From Acidobacteria bacterium UBA2990 (lineage in GTDB: Bacteria > Acidobacteriota > Vicinamibacteria > Vicinamibacterales > UBA8438), in assembly GCA_002347025.1 (NCBI GenBank), contig DEAE01000016.1, forward strand, positions 6,877 to 70,876: 64,000 nucleotides of DNA. Reading direction: 5' to 3'. Under the pieces are notes generated by a model, which ran no database searches, had not been told where the DNA came from, and saw only the letters and a list, made by a program, of their open reading frames with translations. Position numbers and translations under genes: made by a program. Shown here piece by piece: positions 27,629 to 55,088 of this stretch (its first letter is position 1; each line of letters starts with the position of its first letter).

Positions 27629-27662
27629 AATCGGGTTCCCCGATCCAAAAAATTCCTAGCTT

Positions 27663-28904
27663 TCAAGCGAGATTCGCCTTTGTCTCATCGGTGTCACCAA
27701 ACTGCGGCAGACAGATCCCCTTCGAACCGAGCAGCTCCAGATACAACCGCTGCACATCAGTCACGAGGCGAGAGGCCATAAAGCGTCCACGCACTTCGGA
27801 ACTCGCTGCGGCTCTCATCTGCTCACTACTACCTGGGTCTGCTAGCAACCGACCTAACGCCGCCCCCAAAGCCACAGCATTGCCGGAAGGAACGAGTATA
27901 CCCGTGCGAGCATGATCGATCAGATCAGGTAATCCGCCCACCCTAGTAGCCACGACCGCACAGCCAGCCGCCATAGCCTCGATAGCCGACACAGGCGTCC
28001 CTTCATTTATCGACGATACCGCAAGTACATCTAAGTCCGAATACACCTTGGGCAAATCGTGACGCCACCCCGTAAAGAACACTCGGCCTCTTAGGTCTGG
28101 CTGACTCGCCCGTTCCTCCAAGCTACCGCGCAAGGGACCATCCCCAACCACCACAAAACGGGCCTCAGACCCGGAGGCTCGCATACAAGCAGCAGCCTCT
28201 AGAAACAGACTGTGGTTTTTTATTGGGAACAGACGCCCCACAATCCCTACCAACGGCACATCAGGCTGTAATTCAAGTTCGCGGCGAAACATACCCTTGT
28301 AACGCTTGGCATCAAACATGGGCTCCAAGTCAAGCCCCAAAGGTACAACGGTGAAACGGCTAGCTGGAGCAACCCCCAACGAGACCAAATCGTCACGCAC
28401 TCGGTTACTAACCGCAATCAGCCGATCAGACATCCTGGCTAAAACCCGTTCCATGACTAGCAGACCCGCGCTTCGCATTCGACCGTAGTAACCGGCTAGC
28501 ACGTGACCATGATATGTATGGAGAACGACGGGTACTCCGACCAGCCACGCAGCCAAACGACCAAGAAACCCGGCTTTGGCTGTGTGAGTGTGCACCACAT
28601 GTGGTCGGAACCGCCTAATAAGCGCAATCAACTTTATCAGCGCTGCCACATCCCGAGGCGCTAGGCTTGCCTGCCCGAGTATTTCTGGAATAACAACCGG
28701 TTCGACACCACGGGCTAGAGCATAATCCAGAAGTGTGCCCTCACCCGGGTTCTCCGTACCCGTCACTAACCAGGACATGAAACGTTTATCCATGCCAGAA
28801 TTCAAGAGCGAGACATGCAAAGCCGGCCCCCCAACATTGAGCCGTGCAATGACCCGCAACACCCGGATTTGGCGAGAGGATATCCCAGCAGGACTGTAGC
28901 TCAT
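27663..28904 (-). CDS. glycosyltransferase, GT4-type (GT-B fold)
   Basis: The N-terminus has R.NVGGPA.HV and the C-terminus has the EX7E region S..EGTPVSAIEAMAAGCAVVATRVGG.PDLI. Confidence 0.8.
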   Translation of the reverse strand: MSYSPAGISSRQIRVLRVIARLNVGGPALHVSLLNSGMDKRFMSWLVTGTENPGEGTLLDYALARGVEPVVIPEILGQASLAPRDVAALIKLIALIRRFRPHVVHTHTAKAGFLGRLAAWLVGVPVVLHTYHGHVLAGYYGRMRSAGLLVMERVLARMSDRLIAVSNRVRDDLVSLGVAPASRFTVVPLGLDLEPMFDAKRYKGMFRRELELQPDVPLVGIVGRLFPIKNHSLFLEAAACMRASGSEARFVVVGDGPLRGSLEERASQPDLRGRVFFTGWRHDLPKVYSDLDVLAVSSINEGTPVSAIEAMAAGCAVVATRVGGLPDLIDHARTGILVPSGNAVALGAALGRLLADPGSSEQMRAAASSEVRGRFMASRLVTDVQRLYLELLGSKGICLPQFGDTDETKANLA

Positions 28905-30835
28905 GACAGGGTTGGCAAACTCGTAGGAGCACCAGTCTGATCAAGATCGGGTCTGCGATCAATAAACGTCCGATGCCATAGTTCAAGCATGATTAATCCC
29001 CAGATCCGCATGTGATGCTGAGCTTGACCCGATTCGTGCTCATCGAGATAACGCTGCAAAGTAGCCGGTTCGAAATAACCGCGTTCGGTAGCAGTCCGTC
29101 CAAGAAGAAGGTCGCGAGCTAATTCCCGCATGCCCCCTCGCAGCCACTGGTCGATCGGAACCCCAAAACCCATCTTTCGCCTCGTCAGTATCCCTGAGGG
29201 CAAGTAGGCCCTCATTACCCGACGAAGCAGGTATTTAGGTGTCCCCAACCGCAACTTGAAAGACACTGGTAGGCTAGCAGCAAACTCCACAACGTGGTGA
29301 TCGAGCAACGGGGAGCGGACTTCAAGCGAATTCGCCATTGATGCAATATCCATCTTGACTAGAAGATCATCAGGCAAATACATCCCAACATCAGCATGAG
29401 CGAATCTCTCGACCACAGCTAACGCATTTGCGCTACGCCAGTGGCTTTCCATCAGACCCAAGGAGTCGGACTCGCCCCACGCCGCAGTAAACTCAGGTGT
29501 ATAAAGCTTGAGCTTATGCTCGACGAGTAACATACTCATCCAGCGCCCATACCGTTGAGCGGGCTCAAGATCTAAACCTCCAACAAATCGTCGTAAACGA
29601 GCCACCGCAGTTTTCGGAGTCGCTGCCGGTAACCACGCGGCCGCACTGGCGACCTGCCGCCGCAGCACCATCGGCAAGCAGTCAAGACGACTTGCCAAGA
29701 CTGCCCCAGCATAGCGGTCATAACCAAGAAACGCTTCGTCACCTCCATCGCCGCTAAGAGCTACCGTAACCGAACGTCCTGCCATTTCGGTCAGGCACCA
29801 AGTCGCCAACGCCGACGAATCAGCAAAGGGCTCATTGTAGTGATAAACCAACCTAGGCAAGAAGTCTGTAACAGCAGGTTTGACAACAAGCTCATGATGC
29901 TCGGTCTCGAAAGCAGCGGCAACCGCCCGAGCGTACGGAAGTTCGTCATACTCTGGCTCTTCAAAACCTATCGAAAATGTCTTAATGGTGCCGGACATCG
30001 AACGACGCATTAGGGCCACGACTGCGCTTGAATCAAGCCCACCACTCAGCAATGCACCCAAGGGAACGTCAGCCACTAGACGCCGCTCCACCGACCTAGC
30101 CAACAGTGCGTCAAGTTCAACCCCAAGATCACCCATAGATCCCTGCAGCTTCGGCTCGTAGTCTAGTGTCCAATAACGTGACAACCGCAATTCTCCGTCT
30201 GTCACTAACATGTAATGAGCTGGGGCCAATTTACGAATGTTCTTGAAGGCACTCAACGGCGCAGGTACGTAACCATAAGTCAAATAATGGTGGATAGCTT
30301 CCTCGTCCACCTCGTTCGGCACCGTTGTATCCTGCAGCAAAGCCTTGGGTTCAGAACCAAAAACCACCGTGTCCCCACGGTGCCAGTAAAATAGCGGCTT
30401 CTGGCCGAGGCGGTCTCGAGCCAGCATAAGGGTACGGGTCCTAGCATCCCAAAGGGCAAACGCGAACATCCCGTCAAGCTTGCGGACACATTCAGGGCCT
30501 TCATCTTCGTAAAGATGAACGATCACCTCGGTGTCGGTCTCCGACCTAAATCGGTGACCACGCATCTCAAGCTCATGACGCAGCTCGCGGAAGTTATAGA
30601 TTTCGCCGTTGAACACCAATCTGATCGAACCATCCTCATTCGACAGAGGTTGACGAGCCCGGTCCGACAGATCAATCACAGCTAACCGACTGCTACCAAG
30701 GCCAATACCGGAGGCAGTCCAAACACCCTGCGCGTCTGGTCCACGATGACTCAGAGCAGCCGTCATGTGAGCCACCAGTTTGGGGTCTACGGCCGGTTCT
30801 CCGGAACGAACTAATTTGCCTGCGATGCCACACAT
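28901..30835 (-). CDS. asparagine synthase (glutamine-hydrolysing)-like amidotransferase
   Basis: MCGIAG provides the catalytic Cys2. The Ntn glutaminase domain is followed by the PP-loop SGGLDSS. The product is 644 aa. The start overlaps the upstream GT gene by 25 nt and cannot move, because Cys2 must follow Met1. Confidence 0.85.
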   Translation of the reverse strand: MCGIAGKLVRSGEPAVDPKLVAHMTAALSHRGPDAQGVWTASGIGLGSSRLAVIDLSDRARQPLSNEDGSIRLVFNGEIYNFRELRHELEMRGHRFRSETDTEVIVHLYEDEGPECVRKLDGMFAFALWDARTRTLMLARDRLGQKPLFYWHRGDTVVFGSEPKALLQDTTVPNEVDEEAIHHYLTYGYVPAPLSAFKNIRKLAPAHYMLVTDGELRLSRYWTLDYEPKLQGSMGDLGVELDALLARSVERRLVADVPLGALLSGGLDSSAVVALMRRSMSGTIKTFSIGFEEPEYDELPYARAVAAAFETEHHELVVKPAVTDFLPRLVYHYNEPFADSSALATWCLTEMAGRSVTVALSGDGGDEAFLGYDRYAGAVLASRLDCLPMVLRRQVASAAAWLPAATPKTAVARLRRFVGGLDLEPAQRYGRWMSMLLVEHKLKLYTPEFTAAWGESDSLGLMESHWRSANALAVVERFAHADVGMYLPDDLLVKMDIASMANSLEVRSPLLDHHVVEFAASLPVSFKLRLGTPKYLLRRVMRAYLPSGILTRRKMGFGVPIDQWLRGGMRELARDLLLGRTATERGYFEPATLQRYLDEHESGQAQHHMRIWGLIMLELWHRTFIDRRPDLDQTGAPTSLPTLS

Positions 30836-32025
30836 GACCCTGAATGTCTCAATCGTTCCAAAGAAGCGTTAATCAGGCTCGACATCTCCTCTATACGAGA
30901 CTCCCAGCTGTTACTCCGAGCCACATCCAGTCGCCGATCGACCTGTAGTTGATCAACATCAGCAAGAGCTGCTGCTATCGCCAATTCGAAAGATTCAGCA
31001 TCAGCACCAATCCGTACAATGTCGCCATGTCTTTCATTGAACCGCTTGATCTCTGCCAAAGGGGTTGACACAACCCCGAGGCCCATAGCCAAATACTCAT
31101 TCAGCTTCGCTGGATAAACGTGACGGGTGTATTCCGCCATCCGGTAGGGCACGATCGCTACATCGAACGCGGCCAAATAATGCGGTACCTCAGCTGGCGC
31201 ACGAGGACCGACAGCATGCACATTAGGCAAGTTCGTCAACCTTGAAGCGTCTACCTGCAACGGTCCCACCAGCACAAAGCTCCATTCAGGTCGCCGAATC
31301 GCCACCACTTCCACCAGTTCCTGATCGACCCACTGGTGGACACCACCGAGGTACCCAACAATGGGTCTAGGGAGAGCCTGCATCTCATGCGGCCTAGTCA
31401 ATCCACCGTTTCTGGACAGCTCAAAACGCGGAAGATCGACGCCAGATGGTACCAGGTGCACATTGCCATTGACTAAGCTAGCCCTCTCAAACAAGGCTTG
31501 GGAAGTCACAAAAACCAGATCAGCTTCAGCCAAACACCGAGCTTCCGTATGAGCTAGCTGACCAGCAGCGGGTGTACTAGCTGCCAAATGGTCCACACAA
31601 TGAAAGATGGATAGCAGCGGGTTCAATGAATGGACCAGAGAGCGGCTTAAGGGAGTCGGCAGGAAATTCCAAATAATGGGCCGTTTGGCTCCCCAAGTCG
31701 ATGTCATCCGAAGAATCGCCCTTTTCATGATCGATCGATTGATCGCTTGCGCGACACCCGAGTATGGGAGTGGAAGCACTAACGGCGAATACACCTCTAC
31801 ATTCTCAGGTCTGGGCAATTGCGAGCCGTCCCCCAGCCCACCTCCACGGAGTCTGCGCCACATACGGGGTAGATCCCGTACAACCGGCGGTCGAACTCCC
31901 GTAGTCTCGACAAACAACACCCGATTGCCCTGCTCTGCGAGCGCAGACATGATCTGCTGGTGGCCTTGCCACAAGAAATCCCAGTCTATCGACGAAAGGC
32001 ATACGATGGCGTGATTCCTTAGCAT
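30811..32025 (-). CDS. glycosyltransferase, GT-B fold (GT1/GT4-like)
   Basis: The N-terminus has CLSSIDWDFLWQGHQQIM..LA..GNRVLFVE and the C-terminus has KLNEYLAMGLGVVSTPL, a pattern seen in TuaH-like GT-B enzymes. Confidence 0.65.
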   Translation of the reverse strand: MLRNHAIVCLSSIDWDFLWQGHQQIMSALAEQGNRVLFVETTGVRPPVVRDLPRMWRRLRGGGLGDGSQLPRPENVEVYSPLVLPLPYSGVAQAINRSIMKRAILRMTSTWGAKRPIIWNFLPTPLSRSLVHSLNPLLSIFHCVDHLAASTPAAGQLAHTEARCLAEADLVFVTSQALFERASLVNGNVHLVPSGVDLPRFELSRNGGLTRPHEMQALPRPIVGYLGGVHQWVDQELVEVVAIRRPEWSFVLVGPLQVDASRLTNLPNVHAVGPRAPAEVPHYLAAFDVAIVPYRMAEYTRHVYPAKLNEYLAMGLGVVSTPLAEIKRFNERHGDIVRIGADAESFELAIAAALADVDQLQVDRRLDVARSNSWESRIEEMSSLINASLERLRHSGSCVASQAN

Positions 32026-32031
32026 CGCTCC

Positions 32032-33177
32032 TTACCCACCATGTAGCTCCAGATACAGCTCTTCAGTCATGCCTACCATCCGATTGGCAGAAAAACGCTG
32101 CCGGGCAACTGCCTGACCGGCCTCGCCCAGCCGCCTCGAACGCTGTGGTGCTTTAAGTAGTTCTAACATGGCCCCCGCAAGCGCTGCAGGGTTTCTTGGT
32201 GGGACAATTCTGGCGGTGACACCATCCTCAACCACTTCAGGGATGCCTCCTACGTCTGTAGCGACCACCGCGCGACCGAGCGCCATCGCCTCAATCAACG
32301 TGATCGGCAGTCCTTCAGAGATCGATGGCACTACAACCAAATCGCTCCTTTTCATCAGCTCAAGGCTATCCCTGATCTCCCCCGTGAACGTTACCCGGTC
32401 AGCAACACCAAGCTGCTTAGCGAGCAGCTCAGCTGACGCCCGGCTCTCCCCATCTCCAGCCAAAACAAACCGTACTCGCGGGTAGACTCGAACAACTTGC
32501 GGGATTGCCCGAATCAGATACCGATGGCCCTTGATAGGGAAGAAGTTGGCCACAACTGCCACCACGGGGCTTCCTGAGCCCCAACGTTCAGACGAACCAC
32601 AAGCGACGTGTCGTTCCTGCCGCTCGACTTCATGGACGTCGACCCCATTCTGAATGACCGAGATCCGGCCTCTAGGCACCCTGATCCCAGATCTAGCCGA
32701 TAGGTCATCAGCAACGTATTGGGACGGCGCAATCACACGGTCGCAACCCCAGTAAATAGAACGAAAGACACAAGAAAACGCTTGCCGCCTAACCCGTTTG
32801 CCTCCTGTGACATCGATAGGCAGGAAGTAAGCTCCAGCGACACTACTAACCACTCGCCTAACTCCTGCCAAACGAGCTGCCAATCCACCCAAGACATCAG
32901 CGGTCCACAGATGGGTGTGCACGATGTCACAGCGAGACTCCCGCATCATTCCAGCCAACCTAGTGACTGTTGATAGCCTCCTCAAGTCGACCAAGTCAAG
33001 ACTGAATACCCTTGTGGCGTCTCGCCGATAGGTATCGAACATCACTCCTTGACCGTGGCATGCCACCGTTACTTCAAATCGGCCTGGATCCAACCCCTGT
33101 AAGAGGGTAGAGAACACTTGCTCAGCCCCCCCTACACCAGAGGCGGCAATCACGCTAAAGATTCTGATTCGTTCCAC
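32032..33177 (-). CDS. glycosyltransferase, GT4-type
   Basis: It has GVGGAEQVF and the EX7E region PSISEGLPITLIEAMALGRAVVATDVGGIPEVV. Confidence 0.8.
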   Translation of the reverse strand: MERIRIFSVIAASGVGGAEQVFSTLLQGLDPGRFEVTVACHGQGVMFDTYRRDATRVFSLDLVDLRRLSTVTRLAGMMRESRCDIVHTHLWTADVLGGLAARLAGVRRVVSSVAGAYFLPIDVTGGKRVRRQAFSCVFRSIYWGCDRVIAPSQYVADDLSARSGIRVPRGRISVIQNGVDVHEVERQERHVACGSSERWGSGSPVVAVVANFFPIKGHRYLIRAIPQVVRVYPRVRFVLAGDGESRASAELLAKQLGVADRVTFTGEIRDSLELMKRSDLVVVPSISEGLPITLIEAMALGRAVVATDVGGIPEVVEDGVTARIVPPRNPAALAGAMLELLKAPQRSRRLGEAGQAVARQRFSANRMVGMTEELYLELHGG

Positions 33178-33195: not shown

Positions 33196-35142
33196 CTAGG
33201 TCGCAGTCTCGACAAGAGCCGCCTTTATAGACGCGCTCAATCCATCAACATCCAACTGATGATGGGCTAAAACCTCATCGTTAGTTCCGCATACCGGCAA
33301 ATCTCGAACCCCAATAGATATCACCGGTAGCGCTACACCGAATCGTGCGATTCGGCTAGCTAACATCTGGCCTTGTCCAGCCTCGACATAATGGTTATCC
33401 AGAGTCACCACAAGCTTTACGCCCACTAACGTTTCCCTGAGCCAATCGGTGTCAACCCGATTTAACCAGGGCAGATCAATAACCTTCGCGCTCACACCCT
33501 CATCGCGGTCGAGTTTCTCTGCCGCATCGTAAGCGTTAGCTAGCAGCCACGGCCCAGCCCCGAAAATGACGACATCGCCACCGGCTCGGACCTCGGTCCC
33601 GATACCCAGACACAGAGCATGGTCGGCTGGTAGCCTGAAAGGTAATGGCCACCCAAGCGACACCAGACGAATGTAGCTACTCGCCTTTGTTCGATTTACA
33701 CAAAAATCAAGTGTCGCCTTCACTTCAACCTCGGAGCAAGGTTCAATAAGCAGCAAGTTCGGTACCGCGGTTAAAGCTGAGATATCCCTTACAGCTTGAT
33801 GTGAATGTCCTGGACCTCCAGGTAACAGGCCTGCCAGTGACCCTACATAGATCACCTTCGTTCCTTCGCTAGCGTTGTTGTAGATTTGCTCGTTTGGTCG
33901 AGCTGAAAGAAAGCAGGCAAACGAGTGCACGAGCGGAATCAGGTCCTGACGGGCCAGAGCACCAGCCTGTGAAACCATGTCCTGCTCAGCAATCCCACAT
34001 TCGATGAAACGCTCTGGAAATCGGCGCCGAAATTCAAGTAATCCACAATCCTTAACTAAGTCTGCATCGAGTACTACAATTGAGGAATTCCTAGCAGCCT
34101 GCTCCACCAGCGCACTCGAATAAGCGTCGACCAAACGTTCAACAGCCAAGACCGGCTTTCGAGGAGGTCGTCTTCCCTTTTCGAGAATCAATTCGCTCAG
34201 CCCAGCTTCCCGGGTGAGAACATTGGCCGAATCAATGAGTTCTGCCAATCCTCTCGCGTAAGCCTCCTCATTTGGCGCCCCGCTATGGAAGAGATAGAGG
34301 TCGTTGTCGTCTAGAGCAGTTGGGCCTTCCATAAACGACACGCCTTTACCTTTCACCGTATCGGCTATGAGCACCTTTGGGACCCCACCAATTTCGTCTA
34401 GTCGATTAAGGGCCAGTTCGATCGCACTGAAGTCGTGACCATCACAGCGTGCGGTCAGCCACCCAAAGCTAGTGAACTTCCCCTCAAGGTCGCCCAGTGA
34501 ACCCACTTCTTCGACCCAAGTGTCAGATTGGATCTTGTTGTGGTCGACTATCACGGTAATTTCGCCCAATCCAAGCTGCACAGCAGATCCAAGAGATTCC
34601 CAAATCTGTCCCTCTTGTAACTCACCGTCTCCAGTCAACACAAAGATACGACGCACCTGACCCTTCATACGCTGGGCTAACGCCATCCCCTTGGCCTTCG
34701 AAATTCCCATTCCGAGCGAACCGGTATTTGCCTGAATAAATGGTGTTTCTACATGCGGGTGACCTGCCAATCCTTCAACACGACGCAAGTTGTGCAACTG
34801 ATCGAAGTCGAGTAGCCCCAGACCGGCCAGCACGGTATAGAGTGCTGGTGCATCATGGCCTTTTGAAGAAAAGAAGAAGTCGCATTTATCTTGACCTTGG
34901 TCAAGTCCTTGCATCCTCTCCAAGAAAAGCCATGTCATGATGTCAACGGAACTGAAGCAGGTCCCAATGTGTCCAGACCAAGCTCGTGCTATCGAGTAGA
35001 AGACATTGATACGTGCGTAGGCTGCAAAAAGTGCAGCGCATTGCTCGGCTGCCAGACCAGCTTCTCTCAACTCTTTGAACGCCAGATACGGCACGTAAGA
35101 CAGCTCGTCTGATTCGACTTCTTCGAGCTGCGATTCACCCAT
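33196..35142 (-). CDS. transketolase-family enzyme (N- and C-terminal halves fused, 648 aa)
   Basis: The TPP-binding region has GH.......TGSLG.G...A.GMA and LTGDGELQEGQIWES. The pyrimidine-binding half has FIECGIAEQDMVSQAGALA. Confidence 0.8.
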   Translation of the reverse strand: MGESQLEEVESDELSYVPYLAFKELREAGLAAEQCAALFAAYARINVFYSIARAWSGHIGTCFSSVDIMTWLFLERMQGLDQGQDKCDFFFSSKGHDAPALYTVLAGLGLLDFDQLHNLRRVEGLAGHPHVETPFIQANTGSLGMGISKAKGMALAQRMKGQVRRIFVLTGDGELQEGQIWESLGSAVQLGLGEITVIVDHNKIQSDTWVEEVGSLGDLEGKFTSFGWLTARCDGHDFSAIELALNRLDEIGGVPKVLIADTVKGKGVSFMEGPTALDDNDLYLFHSGAPNEEAYARGLAELIDSANVLTREAGLSELILEKGRRPPRKPVLAVERLVDAYSSALVEQAARNSSIVVLDADLVKDCGLLEFRRRFPERFIECGIAEQDMVSQAGALARQDLIPLVHSFACFLSARPNEQIYNNASEGTKVIYVGSLAGLLPGGPGHSHQAVRDISALTAVPNLLLIEPCSEVEVKATLDFCVNRTKASSYIRLVSLGWPLPFRLPADHALCLGIGTEVRAGGDVVIFGAGPWLLANAYDAAEKLDRDEGVSAKVIDLPWLNRVDTDWLRETLVGVKLVVTLDNHYVEAGQGQMLASRIARFGVALPVISIGVRDLPVCGTNDEVLAHHQLDVDGLSASIKAALVETAT

Positions 35143-35229
35143 TTCTAACTCCCTCTCCCAAGGTCCTTACTTCAAACATCCCACCATATGAACCAGCCAA
35201 ACCTAGACCAGATCGTCCAGCCCTCGTTT

Positions 35230-36006
35230 CTAGCTTCCTGAATTCAACGATTGCCTAGAAAAGGGCAGCCGGACTATGTCCGGCAGAACAACCTCTCCCT
35301 GTCGCACCAACTCCTCAGCCAACCACCAATCTGCCTGTTCGTTGATGTCAAAACCTTCATGCCCTTCCGTAACAAATGGGACCAAGGTACTACCAGCTAT
35401 CGTCCGGGTTTCCGAAACAACACGAGTCCAAGCGATCTCCAAGCTCGCGTTTTGCACCCAAACCTCAGGAAGCGCTGGCATTTGGCTACTGTGCCAAGGT
35501 TGTTCGGATGGACCAAATGGCAGCAGCGGCAAGAGTCGATCACCTCGAATCATCCACATCTTACCGGGGTGCTGGCTAACCCTCTCTACCGCTCGCAGCG
35601 AATCAACTCCTTTAGCTCGGCGAAACACAGCCCAAGCCCGACGAATAGTCTCTACTGTTCGAAAAGGACTAGTAGGTCTGAGAATCGCGAAGCTATCGAA
35701 AGCGTCGCCACTTTTCTCAAGCGCAACCAAAGCATGATCCACCCATTCGATGTCCGGTGACCTCCCACCTGCCAACGATGCCGGTCTAAGGAACGGCACG
35801 CTGGCTCCGTAGTAACGTGCAATCTCGGCAGTCGCTGCATCATCCGTCGACACTACCACCGAACTAAAACATCCAGCGTCGAGCGCAGCAGCAATCGTGT
35901 AGGCAATTAGTGGGTGACCCGCAAACAACCGCACATTTTTCCCAGGCACACGCGCGGAACCAGCTCGGGCCGGCACGAACGCCACACAACTAGGAACAGC
36001 GCTCAT
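35230..36006 (-). CDS. acylneuraminate/ulosonate cytidylyltransferase (NeuA/KdsB family)
   Basis: AFVPARAGSARVPGKNVR.FAGHPLIAYTI is the signature N-terminus of the CMP-sugar synthetase family (CTP_transf_3 type). Confidence 0.8.
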   Translation of the reverse strand: MSAVPSCVAFVPARAGSARVPGKNVRLFAGHPLIAYTIAAALDAGCFSSVVVSTDDAATAEIARYYGASVPFLRPASLAGGRSPDIEWVDHALVALEKSGDAFDSFAILRPTSPFRTVETIRRAWAVFRRAKGVDSLRAVERVSQHPGKMWMIRGDRLLPLLPFGPSEQPWHSSQMPALPEVWVQNASLEIAWTRVVSETRTIAGSTLVPFVTEGHEGFDINEQADWWLAEELVRQGEVVLPDIVRLPFSRQSLNSGS

Positions 36007-36065
36007 TGCTCCAGGTCCTCAGACACGTTCATTCTTGAGTTCTGTTTGGAATAAGTTCCATCATG

Positions 36066-37589
36066 TCAAACACACGTGGGATCGGCATTGATGTAGATCG
36101 TTTTCCAGTCTGAATAAACATCGAGTGCCTCCGCACCGGCCTCGCGCCATCCAGTACCTGACTGCCTCACACCACCAAAGGGCATATGCGGCTCACTGCC
36201 ATAGGTAGCACCATTAATAGAGGCCACCCCGGCCTTGATACGACTCAGAAAAGTCATACCCCGGTCGATGTTCGCCGTATGAATAGCAGCAGTAAGCCCA
36301 AAAGGCGAATTGTTAGCCAGTTCTAGCGCTTCCTCAAAATCTGACACCCGATAAAGACAGGCAATCGGACCGAAAAGTTCAGCTTGAGAGATCTCGTCGG
36401 AACCGGTCGCACCTTCCAACAGTGTGGGCATCATGAAAAACCCGTTTCGGTGCGCATCATCTGTCAAACGGCCCCCACCGGTCAGTACTGTAGCCCCAGT
36501 TTGGCGGGCTCGCTCAACTGCTGCAATCATGTTCTCAAGCTGTCGCTGATTGATTACTGGTCCCAAATCATCATCATCGGCAGACCCAAGCGTCAGCCCC
36601 TGGGTGTGCTCAAGTAATTGCTCCTTGAAACGGTCATAGATTCCATCGAATACGATAAGGCGACTGCCTGATGCGCAGCGCTGTCCGGCGTTGCTAAAAG
36701 CAGACATTGCAGCCGTCGCCACAGCTCGATCGAGATCGGCGTCATCACACACAATAAGTGGATTTTTTCCGCCCAGTTCCATGCATACCTTGGCTAGCCT
36801 AGCACCAGCCGAAGCCTGAATTTGACGCCCGACATCACATGACCCAGTAAAGCTGATGAGATCGACATCCTGATGCTCAACTAGGGGTGCCCCGGCTTCT
36901 GGCCCAAATCCCTGCACGACGTTGAACACCCCAGGAGGAACTCCAACCTCGTGGAATAGTTTCGCCGCTGCCCACGCTGTCGCCGGTGTATCCTCGGAAG
37001 CTTTCATCACAGCTGTGTTACCACATAAGAGCGCCGGGTACACCTTCCACGCAACGTTCGCTATGGGTGTATTGGCTGCAATGATCAAGCCCGCGACACC
37101 AAGAGGCTGGCGAACCACCAATGAGGTACGGTTTGGGACAGCGCTAGTAGTCGTCTTACCGAAAAACCGCCGCCCTTCACCGGCCACAAAAAGCCCCATC
37201 TCGACTGCTGCCCCAGTCTCCCCTCTGGCATCCTGCCTCGATTTTCCGGTTTCAAGCGACACAATCTCAGCAAATTCTTCGGAACGATCGCGCATCAACA
37301 GCGCAGCCTCTCGCAAAAGATCGCCCCGAGAGACCGGGGTCATATCGGCCCACTCCGACTGCGCTAGGCGAGCTGCCGCCACCGCTCTCTCTATGTCAGC
37401 ATTCCCAGAACGGGCCACCGTACACAACTGTTCCCCTGTCACTGGATCAATATTCAACAGCACCTGACCATCCAGAGCCTGTTCCTCTTGGCCCTTGATG
37501 ACATTTGGAATGTAGTCCGGTATGGGTGACCTAGCGTGCATTTGAATCCGTTCTTTCGAGTATCTAGATGCGACCGCGTTGGTAAGCAC
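36066..37589 (-). CDS. NAD(P)-dependent aldehyde dehydrogenase
   Basis: It has FTGS..VG, the catalytic Glu region MELGGKNP and the catalytic Cys region NAGQRCAS. The start is either M1 or M17. Confidence 0.85.
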   Translation of the reverse strand: MLTNAVASRYSKERIQMHARSPIPDYIPNVIKGQEEQALDGQVLLNIDPVTGEQLCTVARSGNADIERAVAAARLAQSEWADMTPVSRGDLLREAALLMRDRSEEFAEIVSLETGKSRQDARGETGAAVEMGLFVAGEGRRFFGKTTTSAVPNRTSLVVRQPLGVAGLIIAANTPIANVAWKVYPALLCGNTAVMKASEDTPATAWAAAKLFHEVGVPPGVFNVVQGFGPEAGAPLVEHQDVDLISFTGSCDVGRQIQASAGARLAKVCMELGGKNPLIVCDDADLDRAVATAAMSAFSNAGQRCASGSRLIVFDGIYDRFKEQLLEHTQGLTLGSADDDDLGPVINQRQLENMIAAVERARQTGATVLTGGGRLTDDAHRNGFFMMPTLLEGATGSDEISQAELFGPIACLYRVSDFEEALELANNSPFGLTAAIHTANIDRGMTFLSRIKAGVASINGATYGSEPHMPFGGVRQSGTGWREAGAEALDVYSDWKTIYINADPTCV

Positions 37590-37631
37590 GCCCCAGTTTC
37601 AGTACAGGTGGCAGGGCGACACGGCCTTCCT

Positions 37632-38447
37632 TCACCAAGCTGTGAAACCCCCGTCCACCCTCAATTCTGTGCCTGTGACATAGGAAGATGCGTCCGACGC
37701 CAAAAACCGTAACGGTCCCCTCAGGTCAGCGTCCACAGCCATTCGACCTAGCGGAACGCGATCATTAAATTTTCGCTGAAACTCAGGGTCTTGGTCTCCC
37801 AGCACCCCTCCTGGAGATAGCGTGTTAACCCTCACTCCGTACGGCCCCCAAACCGTCGAGAAATATCGAGTCAAGTTGACCACGGCTGCCTTGGAGGCAC
37901 CGTAGGCCGGCGGCTTCAAGAAAGGTGGTTCAAGAGCCATATGGTCATAGAGACGAGCATCAGGCGAAACACTGGCATAAAGCGACCCTATGTTGATAAT
38001 CGACCCTCGACGAGCCTTCACCATCTCAGCCCCAAACACCTGTGTCACCTGGAATGTGCCCAAAGTATTGACTTCCAAAATCGTGCGGCAGACATCAAGA
38101 GGCACATCCTCTAGGCGATGAGATACTAACCCACCAACCGAAGCCGGCTGATCAATACCAGCATTGTTGACTAAGACATGTACCCCACCCAAGGTTCTCC
38201 CACAAGTGTCCCGCGCCACGATTAGTGCATCTCGATCAAGCACGTCGGCCCTATGTAGCACCAACCTGGTCTCATCGTGAACCCCTCGCAAGGATTCAAA
38301 TGCAGAGCTAATCTCGGCCCCATCCAACTCAACAGCAAAGACGGCGGCCCCCGCATCTAACAGTGCCTCAACCCAGATAGGTCCAAGCTTACCGGCCGCA
38401 CCAGTCACCACCGCAACAAGACCATCGAGACGAAACGGGTCTGACAT
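37632..38447 (-). CDS. short-chain dehydrogenase/reductase (SDR)
   Basis: It has VTGAAGKLG (TGxxxGxG), NNAG and the catalytic YGASKAA (YxxxK). Confidence 0.85.
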   Translation of the reverse strand: MSDPFRLDGLVAVVTGAAGKLGPIWVEALLDAGAAVFAVELDGAEISSAFESLRGVHDETRLVLHRADVLDRDALIVARDTCGRTLGGVHVLVNNAGIDQPASVGGLVSHRLEDVPLDVCRTILEVNTLGTFQVTQVFGAEMVKARRGSIINIGSLYASVSPDARLYDHMALEPPFLKPPAYGASKAAVVNLTRYFSTVWGPYGVRVNTLSPGGVLGDQDPEFQRKFNDRVPLGRMAVDADLRGPLRFLASDASSYVTGTELRVDGGFTAW

Positions 38448-38465
38448 AAGGCAACCAACAACCGG

Positions 38466-39545
38466 CTACTGTTCCGGGTTCGTGGAGTCCGAAGCCTCCG
38501 CTAGCTGGTCCAATGAAAGGTCGTCATCCTTGGACAAGGACACAGTGACAACAGACCCAATAACTCGGTCGATTTCGACTGGTGCAAGGCCATCACCTGG
38601 CGATTTCACAGCAACATCATCGGCGGTCAAGCGATGTCCTAGAGCTATATCGCGCGCCGCAACCAACTTCTTTCCCATCTTCACGACTGGGGCCGATTCG
38701 CTCGCAAAGACAGTCTTACGCCCATCTCCCAAGCTCTGCCGTGCGCGCTCCAAATCCCTAGTCATTTTCTTCATACCAACTGGTTCAAGCGAGAACACAT
38801 GGTCAGTGCCCTTCATTGCACGGTTAAGAGTGAAGTGCTTCTCGATTACGCGTGCACCCAAAACATATGTCACCAATGGCATCGCGATGCCATTGTCATG
38901 ACCCGAGTAACCGACAACAATATCTGGGAACTGCTTGCGATAAGTTTCGACAACCCGAAGATTGAGTTCGTCAAATTCCGCCGGATAGCCACAGGTGCAC
39001 TGCATGAGACAAAGCTGCGAATTGATCGGCATGATGGTCTCATAAGCACGTATGACATCTTCCATCGATCCACCACCAGTGCTAACAATCAGCGGCTTAC
39101 CAAACCCGGCGATATGACGTAGCAATGGCAGGTTCCGCAAGTCAGCGGACGCCACCTTATAGGCCGGCATATCAAGCATTTCCAGCATGTCGGCACTAGC
39201 AACATCAAACGCAGTGGCAAAGAAGTCTAGACCCAATTCAGCCGCATACTGCTGTAATTCAACATACTGTTCTCGGTCGAACTCAAGAGCCTCTCGGTGT
39301 TGACCGTATGTTGCACCGAAGCTATTCTCGTTCTCGTACGGCCGGTCGAACGCCGCCTGGGTAAACAGCCCGCGGTTATCTCGCTTCTGCAGCTTCACAG
39401 CACTGACCCCACAGGCCTGTGCCTGCTTGAACATCTCCTTAGCTGTTTCAAGCTTGCCTTGGTGATTGTGGCCCACTTCTGCAATCACGTAGGCAGGGCT
39501 ACGGTCGTTTACAACATGCCGTCCCAGCTTCAACTCGCGTGCCAT
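38466..39545 (-). CDS. NeuB-family ulosonic (sialic-acid-type) acid synthase with C-terminal SAF domain
   Basis: YVIAEVGHNHQG....AKEM.......GV.AVKLQKR is the NeuB TIM-barrel signature. A C-terminal SAF-like segment (..L..DD...K.PGDGL.P) is also present. ATG 39545 is preferred over the track's TTG at 39560 (GGAG lies upstream). Confidence 0.85.
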   Translation of the reverse strand: MARELKLGRHVVNDRSPAYVIAEVGHNHQGKLETAKEMFKQAQACGVSAVKLQKRDNRGLFTQAAFDRPYENENSFGATYGQHREALEFDREQYVELQQYAAELGLDFFATAFDVASADMLEMLDMPAYKVASADLRNLPLLRHIAGFGKPLIVSTGGGSMEDVIRAYETIMPINSQLCLMQCTCGYPAEFDELNLRVVETYRKQFPDIVVGYSGHDNGIAMPLVTYVLGARVIEKHFTLNRAMKGTDHVFSLEPVGMKKMTRDLERARQSLGDGRKTVFASESAPVVKMGKKLVAARDIALGHRLTADDVAVKSPGDGLAPVEIDRVIGSVVTVSLSKDDDLSLDQLAEASDSTNPEQ

Positions 39546-39699: not shown

Positions 39700-40647
39700 T
39701 CATAACATCTTGATCCTAGCCACTAGTGAATCCCATCCCATAGCAGTGGACGCTGTTGCACGAGCATTGCCGGCAAGTGAACCTAGAATATCAGGTGACA
39801 CGGGCAGACCATCACACCGGTTGATATCGATCACATTATGCATATGCCCAAACACCTCTGGCGAATATTCATCAAGATTAGTAACAACGACTGCTCCACA
39901 GTCCATAGCTGCATTGACTGTTGTGTTGTTCGCGCGGACCCCTTTTTCAAAGAATGCCGTGAAAAAAGTTGTGTCGAGCAAATAGTTGTAGACCGCCGTG
40001 TCTGACAAATAGCCCAAGAAATAGATCTTGTTGCCATAGATTTTCTTCAACTCTTCAAACACCGCCGTAAAACTCTCATCGAAGGCGGTCCCTTCGTGGA
40101 GGGCCGTGGAGAGATACACCGAATAAGGCCGACCGGTCTTTTCGAGCAGGGCCTGGAACGTGCGGTGTAATTCCGGACGAACCTTATGAGCCATCCCAAA
40201 TGCAAACACCGAAATACCGTCCGACGCAAACCGCTGTGGTTCCAGTAGTGTCGATGGGCACCACAACTTCTCGACAGCGGCTCGGCGATTTCGCAGGCTG
40301 GCCACCAATTCGTCGTTCCCGCAAAATACCACTTCCGCCAGAGAGAGCAGCAGTTGCTCTGTTGGTGTTTCTGTCCACTCATGCAAGAAAAGCGCGAAGT
40401 GATCCCTCCACGGCGCAGTCTCTACAAGTGATGCAAGGGCCTCAGCATCGGCCTCCGCGAACTCAGAAATCTTGACAGACAGCAGAGGCCGCCGCAGCGC
40501 AGCTGCTCTATTATCAAACAAACCAAAGATCTGAACCTCCAGATGCCTGGCCAACATCACGTTAAACTTGGCAACGCCACATGTCAGCGGGTTCAAGTGG
40601 TAACCGACCACCCCATCGACATCACCACCGAACGCTGTTTCGCTCAC
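39700..40647 (-). CDS. hypothetical protein, possibly a divergent GT-B-like glycosyltransferase
   Basis: The product is 315 aa. The only hints are a C-terminal ..GVRANNTTVNAAMDCGAVVVTN.. segment resembling the EX7E region of GT4 enzymes, and ATGA coupling to the upstream gene. Confidence 0.35.
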   Translation of the reverse strand: MSETAFGGDVDGVVGYHLNPLTCGVAKFNVMLARHLEVQIFGLFDNRAAALRRPLLSVKISEFAEADAEALASLVETAPWRDHFALFLHEWTETPTEQLLLSLAEVVFCGNDELVASLRNRRAAVEKLWCPSTLLEPQRFASDGISVFAFGMAHKVRPELHRTFQALLEKTGRPYSVYLSTALHEGTAFDESFTAVFEELKKIYGNKIYFLGYLSDTAVYNYLLDTTFFTAFFEKGVRANNTTVNAAMDCGAVVVTNLDEYSPEVFGHMHNVIDINRCDGLPVSPDILGSLAGNARATASTAMGWDSLVARIKML

Positions 40648-41759
40648 CGTTGATTCTCCGGCTTTTCATAAACCAAGACGCGCCCTTTTCCCATCCAGTC
40701 AATTTTCGACTCAAGATCCTGACAACGACGAAAGCCTTCCAGCACAAACAGCACCCTCAAAAAATCCTTGTTGAGCAAAGTTATATGGGAAGGGTCAACC
40801 TCAAACTGGGTTGTCACATCCAGTAGTCCATTGGGGTCTGGGTGAAACCTCGTCGTGACATATACGTATCGGGAACTAATCCGACACAGATTTCTGACCG
40901 TCTCACGTACCTGCAAGACTGTAAGGTGTTCCATCACTTCGCGGCAGATAACAAGCTGGTAGGTATTGTCAGCAAACAGCTCAGGGTCGGCCGTGGTTCC
41001 CACTATAATCCGCTCTCTGACCTCAGGAGGGGCAAGATCGCGGCAGCTAGGGCTAAAATCGACGCCATCAGCCATAATGCCTTGCTCTTGCAGCAAATAC
41101 AGCAATACCCCTGGGCCACAGCCCACATCAAGCACGGATTCCGGTTGAAACACCTCCTTGACCACTTCCGGATGCCGCCCTTCGATCTTACGTCGAGCCT
41201 CGATCGTGTAGTCGTTATCTCCTTCTCGCCAATCACTGACAAAATACTCTGCATCATAGTGGGACGCCTGAACTGGCGCCTGCGAGCTCACAAGCTGCTC
41301 AAAGTCACAGACCTCACCGTCTGCGTCCCTCCCCAGTTGATACCGACGGAGTAATTCAGTCGAAGAGTCCAACACCGTGTCCAAGAACACGATCTCGATA
41401 CCATGTTCTACACAGATTCGGTCCTGTTCGGAAGGCAGGCGCCCCTGCCAGTCCTTCCCCTTGATGTAATGAGTTGGCCTGAGTTCTCTCAAAACCGTGC
41501 CGGTATCGCAATGGCTCACCATCGTATAGTCGATGACAGACAAGGCATCGATGACCAAGGCGCGCTCTGCACCACCCAGCAACGGAGGGTGTTTCGTAGC
41601 AACATAACTATCTGAAGCGATGTTGCACAATAACGGCATGCCAAGCGCACGAGCTTGCCTGAAATACTCAATATGTCCATGATGCAAAGGGTCAAATGCG
41701 CCGTCCACCATTGCGACACGGCCCCTATACTCTTTCAATTCATCAAATTCGAGAATCAT
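40644..41759 (-). CDS. fusion: HxGH cytidylyl/adenylyl-transferase (TagD / RfaE-domain-II-like) + class I SAM methyltransferase
   Basis: The N-terminus (VAMVDGAFDPLHHGHIEYFRQA..LG..L........D......K.......R...........VD.........KG.DW) is nucleotidyltransferase-like. The C-terminus has VLDVGCGPGVLL......G....GVDFS, methyltransferase motif I. Confidence 0.7.
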   Translation of the reverse strand: MILEFDELKEYRGRVAMVDGAFDPLHHGHIEYFRQARALGMPLLCNIASDSYVATKHPPLLGGAERALVIDALSVIDYTMVSHCDTGTVLRELRPTHYIKGKDWQGRLPSEQDRICVEHGIEIVFLDTVLDSSTELLRRYQLGRDADGEVCDFEQLVSSQAPVQASHYDAEYFVSDWREGDNDYTIEARRKIEGRHPEVVKEVFQPESVLDVGCGPGVLLYLLQEQGIMADGVDFSPSCRDLAPPEVRERIIVGTTADPELFADNTYQLVICREVMEHLTVLQVRETVRNLCRISSRYVYVTTRFHPDPNGLLDVTTQFEVDPSHITLLNKDFLRVLFVLEGFRRCQDLESKIDWMGKGRVLVYEKPENQR

Positions 41760-45079: not shown

Positions 45080-46708
45080 TCACCGAGGGTTCTGGCTCTG
45101 CTCTGATTGGGTCTTAGGCACATCACCGGATGCACTTACCGCATCTAACGCCGCCTTCGTCAATTGGGGTCGCTCTATCGTCCGAGACAAGCGGGGCAAG
45201 CGCCACTCCTGCTTAAGGCGTCCCCACCTGTTAATCATGAAACGAATCAACCGTTTCTTAAGCCTCTTGCGACTAGCTGCAAGCCCAATAGCCCACAAAA
45301 ACGCCTTAAGGGGGACGAGAAGCCCTGACACAGCGTCTGGCGGAATCGGCGCTACATGGTCTAGTCCCTCCAGCGCAGTTACGAACCGTGGTGTAGCGGG
45401 TACGTCAAATCCATGAGGCCTCACAAAGGCTTCAATGAATCGCCGACTTGAATGCGATCCACCAGTATCAATTATCGACACAAGCTGAGAGACGTGCTCA
45501 TCGAGGCTCGTCGCTCGTTGTAGATGTCCGCCATTCTCAGGCAGTAGATACTGGAAATGAAGAGTGCCAGTCTGTGTTCGGTCGAAAGAAGAGTCTATGA
45601 TTGTGAATACGGGTCGGTCTTGTATGCCGGCCTCAATCATTGCCGAGGTATTGATACCCACCACGGCCATACTGTGATGGAGGGTGTCGTAGTAATCGGC
45701 CCTGTCATCATCATCAACTGGGTTGGCACCTTGGTTCGGAAATACCACAACACTTCTATAACCTGTCAAATCAACATTCTGCCAATGGTTTGAATTATAG
45801 GGATGTGGCCTAATAAGGATCCCCAGTGTGCTCAGCGTTCCCGGTCCAAGACGGATCGCTTCAATCCACCGTTTCACGAACCGAACCTCAGTATCAGGGG
45901 CGGAAATCGAGGCCGTGGACCCAACAAAAACGATAAATGCTTCATCTACCGGAAGACCAACACGGCGGCAAAATCTTTCGCGAGACAGACGAGGCTTCCG
46001 ATCAAACCAACGATCAAAACACTGTGCGCCAGTAATAGCGATCCTGTCACCAGAAGCAGCATGAAACTCAATGGCCTCTCTCCGCTGATGGTGGTTCCAC
46101 AAAGTAACCAAATCCGGTTGAATACGCATGAGCCCCTTGGTCGTTAGGTGATCCCAAGAAGCGACGCCCAAGACGCTCGGTATCCCAACCCTCCTAGCCG
46201 ATTTAATCATATCGACCTGTGGACATTGATCGGTGACAAGAGGTGAGACAATAAGCACATCTGGGCTCACCTGTTGAAGAAACGAATCGAGATTCTTGTT
46301 ACTTGGAATCGCACGTTCACAAGCATCAAGCAAGGCAAGCAAGCGGCGAGTCTTACCTTCGGTGCTCATCTGCCACCGACCCAAGAATCGTGTCAAAGGA
46401 GGCAACACCTTACGCATTCGATTCCGCAGGTAGGGTGAGTCCGCAAAGCGAGGATGCAGATAGCGGATGTAATCCACTGTCCCACGTACACCACGAGCCA
46501 CTGGCTCCCAAACATCAGCTCGAACTGGAGTCCTACCCAGCACCTCGACCGCCCGGCCTGAGGCCTTAAATGCTGCAAGTCCTTCAGCCTGCTTGTGAGG
46601 TTGATCGAAGGCAACGGACACCTGGTGGCCGCGGGTCAATAGAGCCTCGACAACCGAATCAAAATAGCGCAGATAGCCTGGATACTGGAGGACAAACAAG
46701 AACTTCAT
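45080..46708 (-). CDS. family A paralog 1: uncharacterised GT-B-like transferase (542 aa) with basic C-terminal tail
   Basis: It starts MKFLFVLQYPGYLRYF.....L..RGHQV. Other motifs are GIPSVLGVASWDHLTTKG, FIVFVGSTAS, ILIRPHPYN, VVGINTSAMIEAGIQDRPVFTI and GTLHFQYLL. It is collinear with the N-terminal half of 47652..50348, and more distantly with 53069..54586. Confidence 0.6.
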   Translation of the reverse strand: MKFLFVLQYPGYLRYFDSVVEALLTRGHQVSVAFDQPHKQAEGLAAFKASGRAVEVLGRTPVRADVWEPVARGVRGTVDYIRYLHPRFADSPYLRNRMRKVLPPLTRFLGRWQMSTEGKTRRLLALLDACERAIPSNKNLDSFLQQVSPDVLIVSPLVTDQCPQVDMIKSARRVGIPSVLGVASWDHLTTKGLMRIQPDLVTLWNHHQRREAIEFHAASGDRIAITGAQCFDRWFDRKPRLSRERFCRRVGLPVDEAFIVFVGSTASISAPDTEVRFVKRWIEAIRLGPGTLSTLGILIRPHPYNSNHWQNVDLTGYRSVVVFPNQGANPVDDDDRADYYDTLHHSMAVVGINTSAMIEAGIQDRPVFTIIDSSFDRTQTGTLHFQYLLPENGGHLQRATSLDEHVSQLVSIIDTGGSHSSRRFIEAFVRPHGFDVPATPRFVTALEGLDHVAPIPPDAVSGLLVPLKAFLWAIGLAASRKRLKKRLIRFMINRWGRLKQEWRLPRLSRTIERPQLTKAALDAVSASGDVPKTQSEQSQNPR

Positions 46709-54587: not shown

Positions 54588-55088
54588 TTACGTCTTTGCT
54601 TGTGCGATCAAGTCGCAGACTTCACGCACAGCGCCGTAGCCCCCCATCCGCGAAGTAATGAATTGGGCAACGTCCTGTACTTCAGGATAAGCATCAGCTA
54701 CACAAATCGAAATGCCAACATTTCGCAGACAGTCCAGATCGTTGACATCGTTACCAACATAAGCCACGGCCCTCAGATCAAGCCCACGCTCTGTAATAAT
54801 TGTTCGAAGGGTCGCCCATTTGGTATCACCAAGGCCTTGTTTACACTCTAGTTGTAGCTTCGTAGCACGAGCCGATACAACAGGATTGGTCTCTGTTGAC
54901 AGAACCATACAATCGACGCCGACCCGACCTAACATCTGCACACCTAGCCCATCCGACCTGGAACAATAAACAGATTCCCGGCCATCTTCTCCGACTAAAA
55001 CTCGGTTGTCCGTGAACACCCCATCAAAGTCAAAAACAACGAAGGTAACCGCACTGAGGTGATCCTTTGTGATTGGTATAGCCATCAT
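54588..55088 (-). CDS. KdsC-family HAD phosphatase (ulosonate-phosphate phosphatase)
   Basis: It has VVFDFDGVFTDN (the DxD nucleophile motif), ....DG.G...L...G......ST......V..RA..L and YVGNDVND, typical of Kdo-8-P / Kdn-9-P phosphatases. Confidence 0.8.
   Translation of the reverse strand: MMAIPITKDHLSAVTFVVFDFDGVFTDNRVLVGEDGRESVYCSRSDGLGVQMLGRVGVDCMVLSTETNPVVSARATKLQLECKQGLGDTKWATLRTIITERGLDLRAVAYVGNDVNDLDCLRNVGISICVADAYPEVQDVAQFITSRMGGYGAVREVCDLIAQAKT

Follow-up and report, generated by a model that had tools for sequence, protein, structure and literature searches.

How bacterial surfaces are recognised depends in large part on nonulosonic acids, for which a small, well-catalogued set of pathways is known. 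Bacteroides thetaiotaomicron forms 2-keto-3-deoxynononic acid (Kdn) by means of a Kdn-9-phosphate synthase, a Kdn-9-phosphate phosphatase and a cytidine monophosphate (CMP)-Kdn synthetase, and the bacterial pathway to N-acetylneuraminic acid (Neu5Ac) comprises NeuC, NeuB and NeuA. In Shewanella, 8-amino-3,8-dideoxy-D-manno-octulosonic acid (Kdo8N) is obtained from 3-deoxy-D-manno-octulosonate (Kdo) through KdnB, which oxidises C8, and KdnA, which transaminates. Here, we describe a gene cassette in a 64,000-nucleotide stretch of contig DEAE01000016.1 of Acidobacteria bacterium UBA2990 (hereafter the window) that encodes a NeuB-family synthase condensing phosphoenolpyruvate (PEP), a short-chain dehydrogenase (SDR), an aldehyde dehydrogenase (ALDH), a NeuA-type CMP-ulosonate synthetase and a transketolase-like (TK) enzyme dependent on thiamine diphosphate (ThDP). 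The analysis supports a NeuB/NeuA-type ulosonic acid pathway without amino-sugar enzymes, and we infer that the locus combines a nonulosonic acid cluster with a tailoring module that is widely conserved and, as far as we found, not described before. Full-text literature searches returned no paper that joins NeuB-type synthases with a transketolase and no description of bacterial ulosaric acid synthesis, in agreement with the original prediction for this locus, which knew of no described pathway with such an enzyme set.

The cassette lies within a contiguous minus-strand gene array that extends from ∼56.8 kb down to 22.3 kb of the window and is flanked by a ThiG gene and an Na+-NQR operon on one side and by rmlB/rmlD-like genes on the other (Table 1). 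As indicated by Pfam and NCBIfam matches, the order by transcription is NeuB, SDR, ALDH, CMP-synthetase and TK, with intergenic gaps of 18–90 nt and one strand used throughout. The SDR and ALDH genes are accordingly located between synthase and synthetase, where the original prediction had placed them, whereas the TK gene, assigned to the same interval, comes after the synthetase. The catalytic motifs of the cassette enzymes are complete, and none of the five proteins reaches the curated NCBIfam cutoff for the named family nearest to it, which marks them as divergent members. The same proteins, identical in sequence, are present on marine metagenome contigs including those of Tara Oceans, and gene calls on identical public contigs match the most likely start of the ALDH at 37541 (491 aa). 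The nearest named relatives are metagenome-assembled genomes of Vicinamibacteria/Acidobacteriota, with 76–82% identity over the cassette (L009). A phosphatase of the KdsC type (C0 class of the haloacid dehalogenase (HAD) superfamily) is found 15 kb upstream of the cassette in the window, a distance that results from an inserted block of transferase, methyltransferase and ATP-binding cassette (ABC) exporter genes; in the closest complete genome (L003), it is just 4 kb from NeuB, and in many related loci a homologue is the next gene after NeuB.

To place the cassette among other genomes, relatives were scanned with two family-specific peptide patterns in one genome per Genome Taxonomy Database (GTDB) species, and the locus counts given here refer to the best 80 of at least 592 relatives. 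As clustering of open reading frames (ORFs) under-counts genes in high-G+C loci, the counts are taken from tblastn. The TK-like protein has thousands of close homologues, and the best 80 loci represent 10 or more phyla. Carriers belong to the Acidobacteriota, Alpha-, Beta- and Gammaproteobacteria, Myxococcota, Chloroflexota, Gemmatimonadota and Planctomycetota, as well as to the Cyanobacteria/Melainabacteria, Actinomycetota, Rokubacteria, Saccharibacteria and Parcubacteria. Among those available in culture are Ciceribacter sichuanensis S101 and Polaromonas sp. SLM_MC1B_02-E07. For co-occurrence, 66 of the 80 loci are informative (those with at least 6 kb upstream of TK); the TK family is accompanied by NeuB in 52 of these, by the CMP-synthetase in 51 and by the SDR and the ALDH in 50 each, with the same gene order and spacing in most. 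Three long contigs display NeuB-SDR-ALDH-cytidylyltransferase-TK followed by a HAD phosphatase or glycosyltransferases, and low-G+C genomes exhibit the clean order NeuB-KdsC-SDR-ALDH-cytidylyltransferase-TK. A phosphatase is present in 35 of the 52 NeuB-containing loci; a KdsC protein occurs in 17 loci and a HAD2 protein in 23, and never do both occur in one locus. The NeuB-SDR-ALDH-CMP-synthetase-TK arrangement is a conserved cassette, beyond what a chance neighbourhood would give.

Shorter versions of the cassette are also observed. In Amycolatopsis sp. NPDC059657 (L086, 8102–11890) and Streptomyces sp. NBC_01237 (L087, 10123–13908), only NeuB, SDR and TK are present, the proteins being 54–58% identical to those of the window; no ALDH, CMP-synthetase or phosphatase is detected within 10 kb in these two loci, which are of high G+C and have unreliable gene calls. 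The actinomycete NeuB-SDR-TK set may reflect a small-molecule use of the same chemistry. Four Polyangia loci (L060, L061, L062 and L076) possess a NeuB without SAF domain, KdsC and the SDR, with ALDH and CMP-synthetase absent, and in three of the four the NeuB/KdsC/SDR genes are on the strand opposite to TK. In a further set of loci (L044, L046, L067, L068 and L078), the TK gene is without any partner.

The window synthase contains both the NeuB and SAF domains and keeps the equivalents of the catalytic Glu (E25) and of the two metal-binding His residues (H215 and H236), as expected for the NeuB family (PF03102). It is far from the NeuB of Neisseria meningitidis (phmmer 157 bits), and its scores of 288 bits against NeuB_NnaB (TIGR03569) and 221 bits against PseI compare with cutoffs of 399.65 and 340, respectively. 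Alignment with the meningococcal enzyme reveals the replacements Glu134→Asp, Phe288→Lys and Arg314→Ser. At these three positions, the cassette NeuBs have D/K/S and the proteobacterial subtype D/K/I, versus E/F/R in the meningococcal protein. Arg314 is given as essential in N. meningitidis NeuB in the passage of PMC8208679 that cites Joseph et al. 2013, and the PDB entries 4ipi and 4ipj are mutants of this enzyme. With a score below the cutoff and with both Arg314 and Glu134, which contact N-acetylmannosamine in such synthases, replaced, the window NeuB does not have the hallmarks of an N-acetylneuraminate synthase and is predicted to take a sugar phosphate rather than N-acetylmannosamine (ManNAc). 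A locus of the Nitrosomonadaceae (L045) has two NeuB genes, at ∼1790 and 4199, one of the classical Glu134/Arg314 type and the other of the cassette Asp/Lys/Ile type followed by KdsC, and a DegT gene is situated downstream of its TK.

The amino-sugar enzymes were expected to be missing, and this is borne out in the window. Pfam scans of every ORF of at least 150 aa in the 64 kb, together with the small ORFs of the cluster, detect no Epimerase_2, DegT or acetyltransferase domain, and tblastn of the window with a genuine NeuC (best E 0.17) and with DegT as queries gives nothing. The window is thus without the hydrolysing uridine diphosphate-N-acetylglucosamine 2-epimerase (NeuC) of the Neu5Ac pathway and without the DegT and acetyltransferase domains of the pseudaminic and legionaminic pathways, in line with the PseI score. 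Nor does the locus conform to a Kdo pathway, the synthase being of the NeuB type rather than KdsA (DAHP_synth_1 family) and the synthetase of the NeuA type rather than KdsB. The best solved relatives of the synthetase are NeuA/CMP-Neu5Ac synthetases, which match over the full length, whereas KdsB models and structures cover just the N-terminal part (residues 6–75); the PseF model gives 131 bits, below its cutoff. The phosphatase scores 111 bits against KdsC (cutoff 208) and 88 bits against the Kdn-9-phosphate phosphatase model (NF058599, cutoff 180).

The residue changes in NeuB, the adjacent phosphatase and the absence of NeuC point to a phosphate-dependent, Kdn-like front end, and the core of NeuB-type synthase, NeuA-type CMP-synthetase and KdsC-type phosphatase, as well as its non-aminated character, stand as originally proposed. 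This core resembles the B. thetaiotaomicron Kdn pathway in its NeuB-family synthase, KdsC-family C0 HAD phosphatase, NeuA-type synthetase and predicted phosphorylated intermediate, and in having no NeuC, aminotransferase or acetyltransferase. It differs in that SDR, ALDH and TK are interleaved and co-conserved in the cassette, in that phosphatase and synthase are below the curated equivalog cutoffs, and in the predicted end product, a C7 diacid; the co-conserved SDR, ALDH and TK argue that Kdn is not the end product. With the bacterial Neu5Ac pathway, the cassette shares the synthase and synthetase families, but the window has no NeuC and its NeuB is devoid of Arg314 and Glu134.

The nearest solved structure to the window TK is the human-type transketolase 4kxu. 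When 64 family members are aligned with human transketolase by MAFFT, the equivalents of human His37, His77, His110, His258, Glu366 and Asn185 and of yeast His481 (H58, H96, H128, H286, E386, N202 and H448 in the window protein, respectively) are invariant, and the Asp155 equivalent (D172) is kept in 63 of 64. The family thereby shares with canonical transketolase (EC 2.2.1.1) the three-domain ThDP fold, the GDG-N motif that binds ThDP and metal, the activating Glu and the catalytic His residues. According to crystal structures, Arg318, Ser345, His416 and Arg474 of human transketolase hold the substrate phosphate, and Asp424 reads the substrate hydroxyl. All four phosphate-binding residues are replaced in the family (Arg318 deleted, Ser345→Asp, His416→Leu, Arg474→Ser/Asn; in the window protein a deletion, Asp365, Leu436 and Ser495), and Asp424 is replaced by Pro. 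These five positions are among the active-site residues listed for the human enzyme (PMC8016368). Unlike canonical transketolase, the protein is encoded in a glycan locus rather than belonging to the pentose phosphate pathway, and its best match among the NCBIfam transketolase models, at 366 bits, is below the cutoff of 488. Substrate-shifted relatives of transketolase are known in sulfo-TK and apulose-4-phosphate transketolase.

Loss of the phosphate-binding residues along with retention of His110, which binds the donor CH2OH, suggests that the TK substrate is a hydroxymethyl-ketone without phosphate, and the kept His110 equivalent speaks for true glycolaldehyde transfer. Given that the His binding the donor hydroxymethyl is invariant, we rejected a role of the ThDP enzyme as a DXS-like enzyme or a decarboxylase. 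The best NCBIfam and PDB relatives of the SDR are mannonate oxidoreductase, gluconate 5-dehydrogenase, KduD and galactitol dehydrogenase. The characterised enzymes nearest to it act on sugar acids or polyols, in which they oxidise the penultimate hydroxyl, and the SDR is accordingly predicted to form a ketone from the penultimate hydroxyl of the ulosonate side chain. Once the side chain is oxidised, the TK is in turn predicted to take off its last two carbons, and the ALDH to turn the aldehyde so generated into a carboxylate; the best NCBIfam matches of the latter, below cutoff, are 2,5-dioxovalerate and α-ketoglutarate semialdehyde dehydrogenases, i.e. of the 2-keto-acid semialdehyde type.

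We propose, with a probability of roughly 0.45, that the cassette and the phosphatase form a self-contained pathway to a CMP-activated, non-aminated ulosonic acid with a shortened and oxidised side chain. In the first step, NeuB would condense PEP with a common hexose 6-phosphate, in the simplest case mannose 6-phosphate, to give a Kdn-9-phosphate-like C9 acid, the terminal CH2OH of which would be freed by the KdsC-type phosphatase. Oxidation of the penultimate C8 hydroxyl by the SDR would then create a HOCH2-CO-CHOH- terminus, i.e. a transketolase donor, and the TK would cut between C7 and C8, so that a glycolaldehyde (C2) unit is lost and the pyranose ring is left with a C7 aldehyde. The ALDH would convert this aldehyde irreversibly to the carboxylate, and the product would be a 3-deoxy-hept-2-ulosaric acid, a dicarboxylic sugar like Dha (3-deoxy-D-lyxo-hept-2-ulosaric acid). 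Finally, the NeuA-type enzyme would make the CMP-sugar, which BFO_1060-like or KpsC/S-like transferases would put on a glycan with a WecA-type primer and ABC-transporter export. With a KdsC-type phosphatase encoded directly after NeuB, the implication is that NeuB acts while the tail is still in place and carries its phosphate, and hence that trimming comes later. Viewed from C9, the 8-keto derivatives of Kdn and Neu5Ac have the 3S,4R (D-threo) configuration that transketolases need, and the presence of the ring oxygen where the donor C4-OH would be is consistent with the loss of Asp424. We also considered a Kdo-like C8 substrate but rejected it, as excision of a C2 unit would destroy C6, the carbon that closes the ring, and the synthetase is NeuA-type rather than KdsB-type.

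The order of these steps is informed by a second group of loci. In eight loci (L049, L057, L059, L063, L064, L069, L072 and L079), SDR, TK and ALDH form a tight block, and directly after it is an Epimerase_2 protein whose NeuC_NnaA score of 333 bits is above the curated cutoff of 236; such NeuC-type loci number eight by tblastn, seven of them at ≥50% coverage. In L079 and L049, the next genes after NeuC are, in this order, a NeuB with both Glu134 and Arg314 retained and a NeuA, which joins a genuine Neu5Ac set to the trio, and the L079 operon reads SDR-TK-ALDH-NeuC-NeuB-NeuA-transferase, in which the last gene is BFO_1060-like. The NeuBs of the NeuC-type loci have E/M/R at positions 134/288/314, as in a Neu5Ac synthase, and a KdsC or HAD2 phosphatase is found in none of these loci, NeuC and phosphatase being mutually exclusive. 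The same trio thus accompanies two routes, one with ManNAc and one with a sugar phosphate as acceptor, which is hard to square with the trio building the acceptor. What the products of both routes have in common is the C7–C9 glycerol tail, an indication of tailoring after condensation. We therefore regard it as probable that the SDR-TK-ALDH trio acts on the NeuB product and not on its substrate. Somewhat more tentative than the pathway for the window itself is the generalisation that a widespread module of SDR, phosphate-site-less TK and ALDH clips the terminal C2 unit from both Kdn-like and Neu5Ac-like sugars and oxidises the stump to give CMP-activated C7 heptulosaric sugars.

The original prediction had assigned the trio the reverse position, with TK, SDR and ALDH making or trimming an unusual aldose or aldose phosphate that NeuB would then condense with PEP to a novel higher or lower ulosonic acid. 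Such an enzyme set is chemically able to remodel sugars, trimming of a free hexose could yield the same C7 diacid, and the reaction order is not fixed by gene order. However, the TK has no phosphate-binding residues, yet the KdsC-type phosphatase implies that both substrate and product of NeuB are phosphorylated; a transketolase donor requires a free terminal CH2OH, which a 6-phosphate blocks; and attachment of the same trio to the NeuC/ManNAc route means a different acceptor. This part of the original prediction is not upheld, and we consider it unlikely.

A second alternative retains an ordinary Kdn-type acid, formed by NeuB, phosphatase and NeuA, and has the trio supply a glycolyl, glyceroyl or other C2–C3 acid substituent, or a hydroxypyruvate C2 donor, for the same glycan. 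In agreement with this, NeuB, KdsC and NeuA correspond to the three-enzyme route of B. thetaiotaomicron, the Kdn-9-phosphate phosphatase model does match the window phosphatase, ThDP enzymes of the transketolase superfamily donate glycolyl units in natural-product pathways, and the best matches of the ALDH are non-specific. Against it, the cassette has no conserved acyltransferase or carrier protein as a companion, the trio genes are interspersed among those for synthase and synthetase in a position kept across phyla and with two front ends, and the variants with only NeuB, SDR and TK, with or without KdsC, tie SDR and TK to the NeuB product, so that a substituent-supplying trio is improbable. 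Least probable is a synthetic direction of the TK reaction coupled to ketone reduction by the SDR, to give a C10/C11 or branched ulosonic acid with the ALDH acting elsewhere: transketolase reactions are reversible, the SDR could equally reduce a ketose and SDR with TK is the tightest pair in all variants, but only TK cleavage itself would yield an aldehyde acceptor on the ulosonate within the cassette, the ALDH, essentially irreversible towards the acid, would be left without substrate, and the NeuA-type synthetase and KdsC phosphatase suit a normal C9 intermediate.

For side-chain tailoring after condensation, as proposed for the cassette, Shewanella Kdo8N provides a precedent in which the terminal carbon of an ulosonic side chain is modified via an aldehyde. 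It differs in that a metal-dependent alcohol dehydrogenase and an aminotransferase are used, no carbon is lost and no ThDP enzyme takes part. The predicted product belongs to the sugar class of Dha, which occurs in plant rhamnogalacturonan II, prasinophyte scales and the lipopolysaccharide (LPS) core of Rhizobiaceae and is, to our knowledge, the only well-known natural heptulosaric sugar. Both are 2-keto-3-deoxy C7 pyranoses with carboxyls at C1 and C7; Dha has the D-lyxo configuration, whereas Kdn as precursor would yield the L-arabino isomer, a diastereomer of Dha. Reviews of 2012 and 2025 (PMC3355719, PMC12168206) list as unknown both how Dha is made and what its nucleotide form is. Its presence in Rhizobiaceae LPS is attributed to Russa et al. 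1991 in the citing text of PMC5713287, and one cassette carrier is a member of this family (L048). A search of PLSDB plasmids with the TK, made with the Rhizobiaceae link in mind, locates the family on one Streptomyces replicon only, where it is unannotated.

Several points weigh against the proposed route. The chemistry of all its steps is drawn from family membership, active-site residues and synteny; the substrate calls for SDR and ALDH are weak, with all matches below curated cutoffs, and the direction of the TK reaction is not readable from sequence. No acceptor for the excised C2 unit is evident, and release of glycolaldehyde is atypical for transketolases. We know of no natural glycan with L-arabino heptulosaric acid, and the D-lyxo isomer found in nature would call for another hexose. 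The actinomycete and Polyangia loci without ALDH and CMP-synthetase, together with the loci where TK is alone, indicate that the TK family is not tied to one end product, and four NeuC-type loci have no NeuB within 10 kb. The co-occurrence figures may also fail for more distant members of the at least 592 relatives.

The remainder of the array is devoted largely to glycan assembly (Table 1). The three putative ulosonate transferase paralogues bear a weak likeness to the Tannerella BFO_1060 transferase and are homologous to a family located directly after TK in 13 other loci; paralogue 1 shares 36% identity with the gene that ends the L079 operon. In other genomes, the position directly after TK is taken by a protein of 576 aa that bears a faint KpsC/KpsS (Capsule_synth) signature, and 45 loci overall have candidate CMP-ulosonate transferases after the cassette. 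The gene directly upstream of NeuB encodes a protein without Pfam or NCBIfam match whose predicted structure is that of a GT-B glycosyltransferase; its family has 2210 homologues, is present in 22 loci and always occupies this position in the acidobacterial cassette. A second Pfam-less protein, adjacent to the KdsC-type phosphatase (55476–56441, minus strand, 321 aa), belongs to a family of >3000 ‘hypothetical proteins’ and adjoins the cassette in several loci (L023, L027 and L029). Its predicted structure (pLDDT 82; Foldseek) consists of a 55-residue N-terminal helix and a class I S-adenosylmethionine (SAM) methyltransferase fold, and its role may be to terminate chains or to measure their length, as methyltransferases do in ABC-dependent O-antigen systems. 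A precursor enzyme role was considered for both proteins and rejected on the basis of these glycosyltransferase and methyltransferase structures.

The fusion of a cytidylyltransferase-like protein with a methyltransferase (40644–41759) corresponds to two adjacent genes in L005 (1729–2864) and L006 (2456–3528) and is always just upstream of the cassette in Acidobacteriota; it may provide a cytidine diphosphate (CDP)-activated methylated head group (phospho-substituent) for the same glycan. The locus also contains a GT2 protein and methyltransferases. The AsnB-like amidotransferase is found in L003 and L038 as well and could amidate a sugar carboxylate, which would be notable if the sugar is a diacid. 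A flavoprotein of the geranylgeranyl reductase family (24358–25500, minus strand) is located between the WecA-like transferase and a large Wzy_C-like membrane protein, as is its counterpart in L003 (18052–19251), and may saturate the polyprenyl carrier lipid. Two Wzy_C/O-antigen-ligase-like membrane proteins are encoded in the window, at 22290–24353 (minus strand) and at 7979–9202 (plus strand), the latter amid housekeeping genes 13 kb outside the glycan locus. Neither Pfam nor NCBIfam gives a match for a 320-aa protein at the locus edge (57390–58352, plus strand) or for a 354-aa protein inside the locus (26564–27628, minus strand).

Table 1. Coordinates in the window of the cassette, the phosphatase and the associated glycan-assembly genes, with the matches on which their naming is based (GT, glycosyltransferase; AF2, AlphaFold2).
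Feature	Position	Strand	Basis
NeuB-family PEP-condensing ulosonate synthase	38466-39545	-	Pfam NeuB 253 bits and SAF 39 bits
Short-chain dehydrogenase (SDR)	37632-38447	-	Pfam adh_short_C2; NNAG and YGASK motifs
NAD(P)-dependent aldehyde dehydrogenase (ALDH)	36066-37541	-	Pfam Aldedh 513 bits; ELGGK and GQRC motifs
NeuA-type CMP-ulosonate synthetase	35230-36006	-	Pfam CTP_transf_3
Fused three-domain transketolase-like ThDP enzyme (TK)	33196-35142	-	Pfam Transketolase_N/pyr/C
KdsC-type (C0 HAD) ulosonate-phosphate phosphatase	54588-55088	-	Pfam Hydrolase_3; DFD motif (DxD) present
Putative ulosonate transferase, BFO_1060-like, paralogue 1	53069-54586	-	Weak NCBIfam BFO_1060_trans and TIGR04396
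Putative ulosonate transferase paralogue 2, 905 aa, multidomain	47652-50369	-	Weak BFO_1060_trans
Putative ulosonate transferase paralogue 3	45080-46708	-	Weak BFO_1060_trans
GT-B fold glycosyltransferase, Pfam-less family	39700-40647	-	AF2 pLDDT 86; Foldseek top GT4 BshA, 2jjm, E ~1e-9
Cytidylyltransferase-like (TagD/RfaE-II-like) and SAM methyltransferase fusion	40644-41759	-	Pfam CTP_transf_like and Methyltransf_23/25
Wzt/TagH-like ABC ATPase, long C-terminal extension	50345-52219	-	PDB TarH, Wzt, TagH, E ~1e-11
KpsM/Wzm-like ABC permease	52254-53120	-	Weak KpsM NCBIfam match, 27 bits
WecA-like initiating transferase	25503-26567	-	Pfam
Three GT4/GT1 transferases	within 25503-33177	-	Pfam
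AsnB-like glutamine-dependent amidotransferase	28901-30835	-	633 bits to TIGR03108 (XrtA/PEP-CTERM amidotransferase), below cutoff

If the proposed route is correct, the cassette would define a new class of acidic surface sugars in hundreds of species-level genomes of many phyla, with carriers that include soil and marine Acidobacteriota as well as Saccharibacteria and Parcubacteria of reduced genome. It would constitute the first biosynthetic route to the Dha class and a testable genetic handle on heptulosaric acids. Excision of a C2 unit by a ThDP enzyme would serve sugar tailoring for the first time, and among transketolases the TK would be the first one known to use a nucleotide-sugar precursor or a building block of glycans as its substrate. 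The large transketolase subfamily to which it belongs, with its remodelled, phosphate-free pocket, is in addition of interest for biocatalysis.

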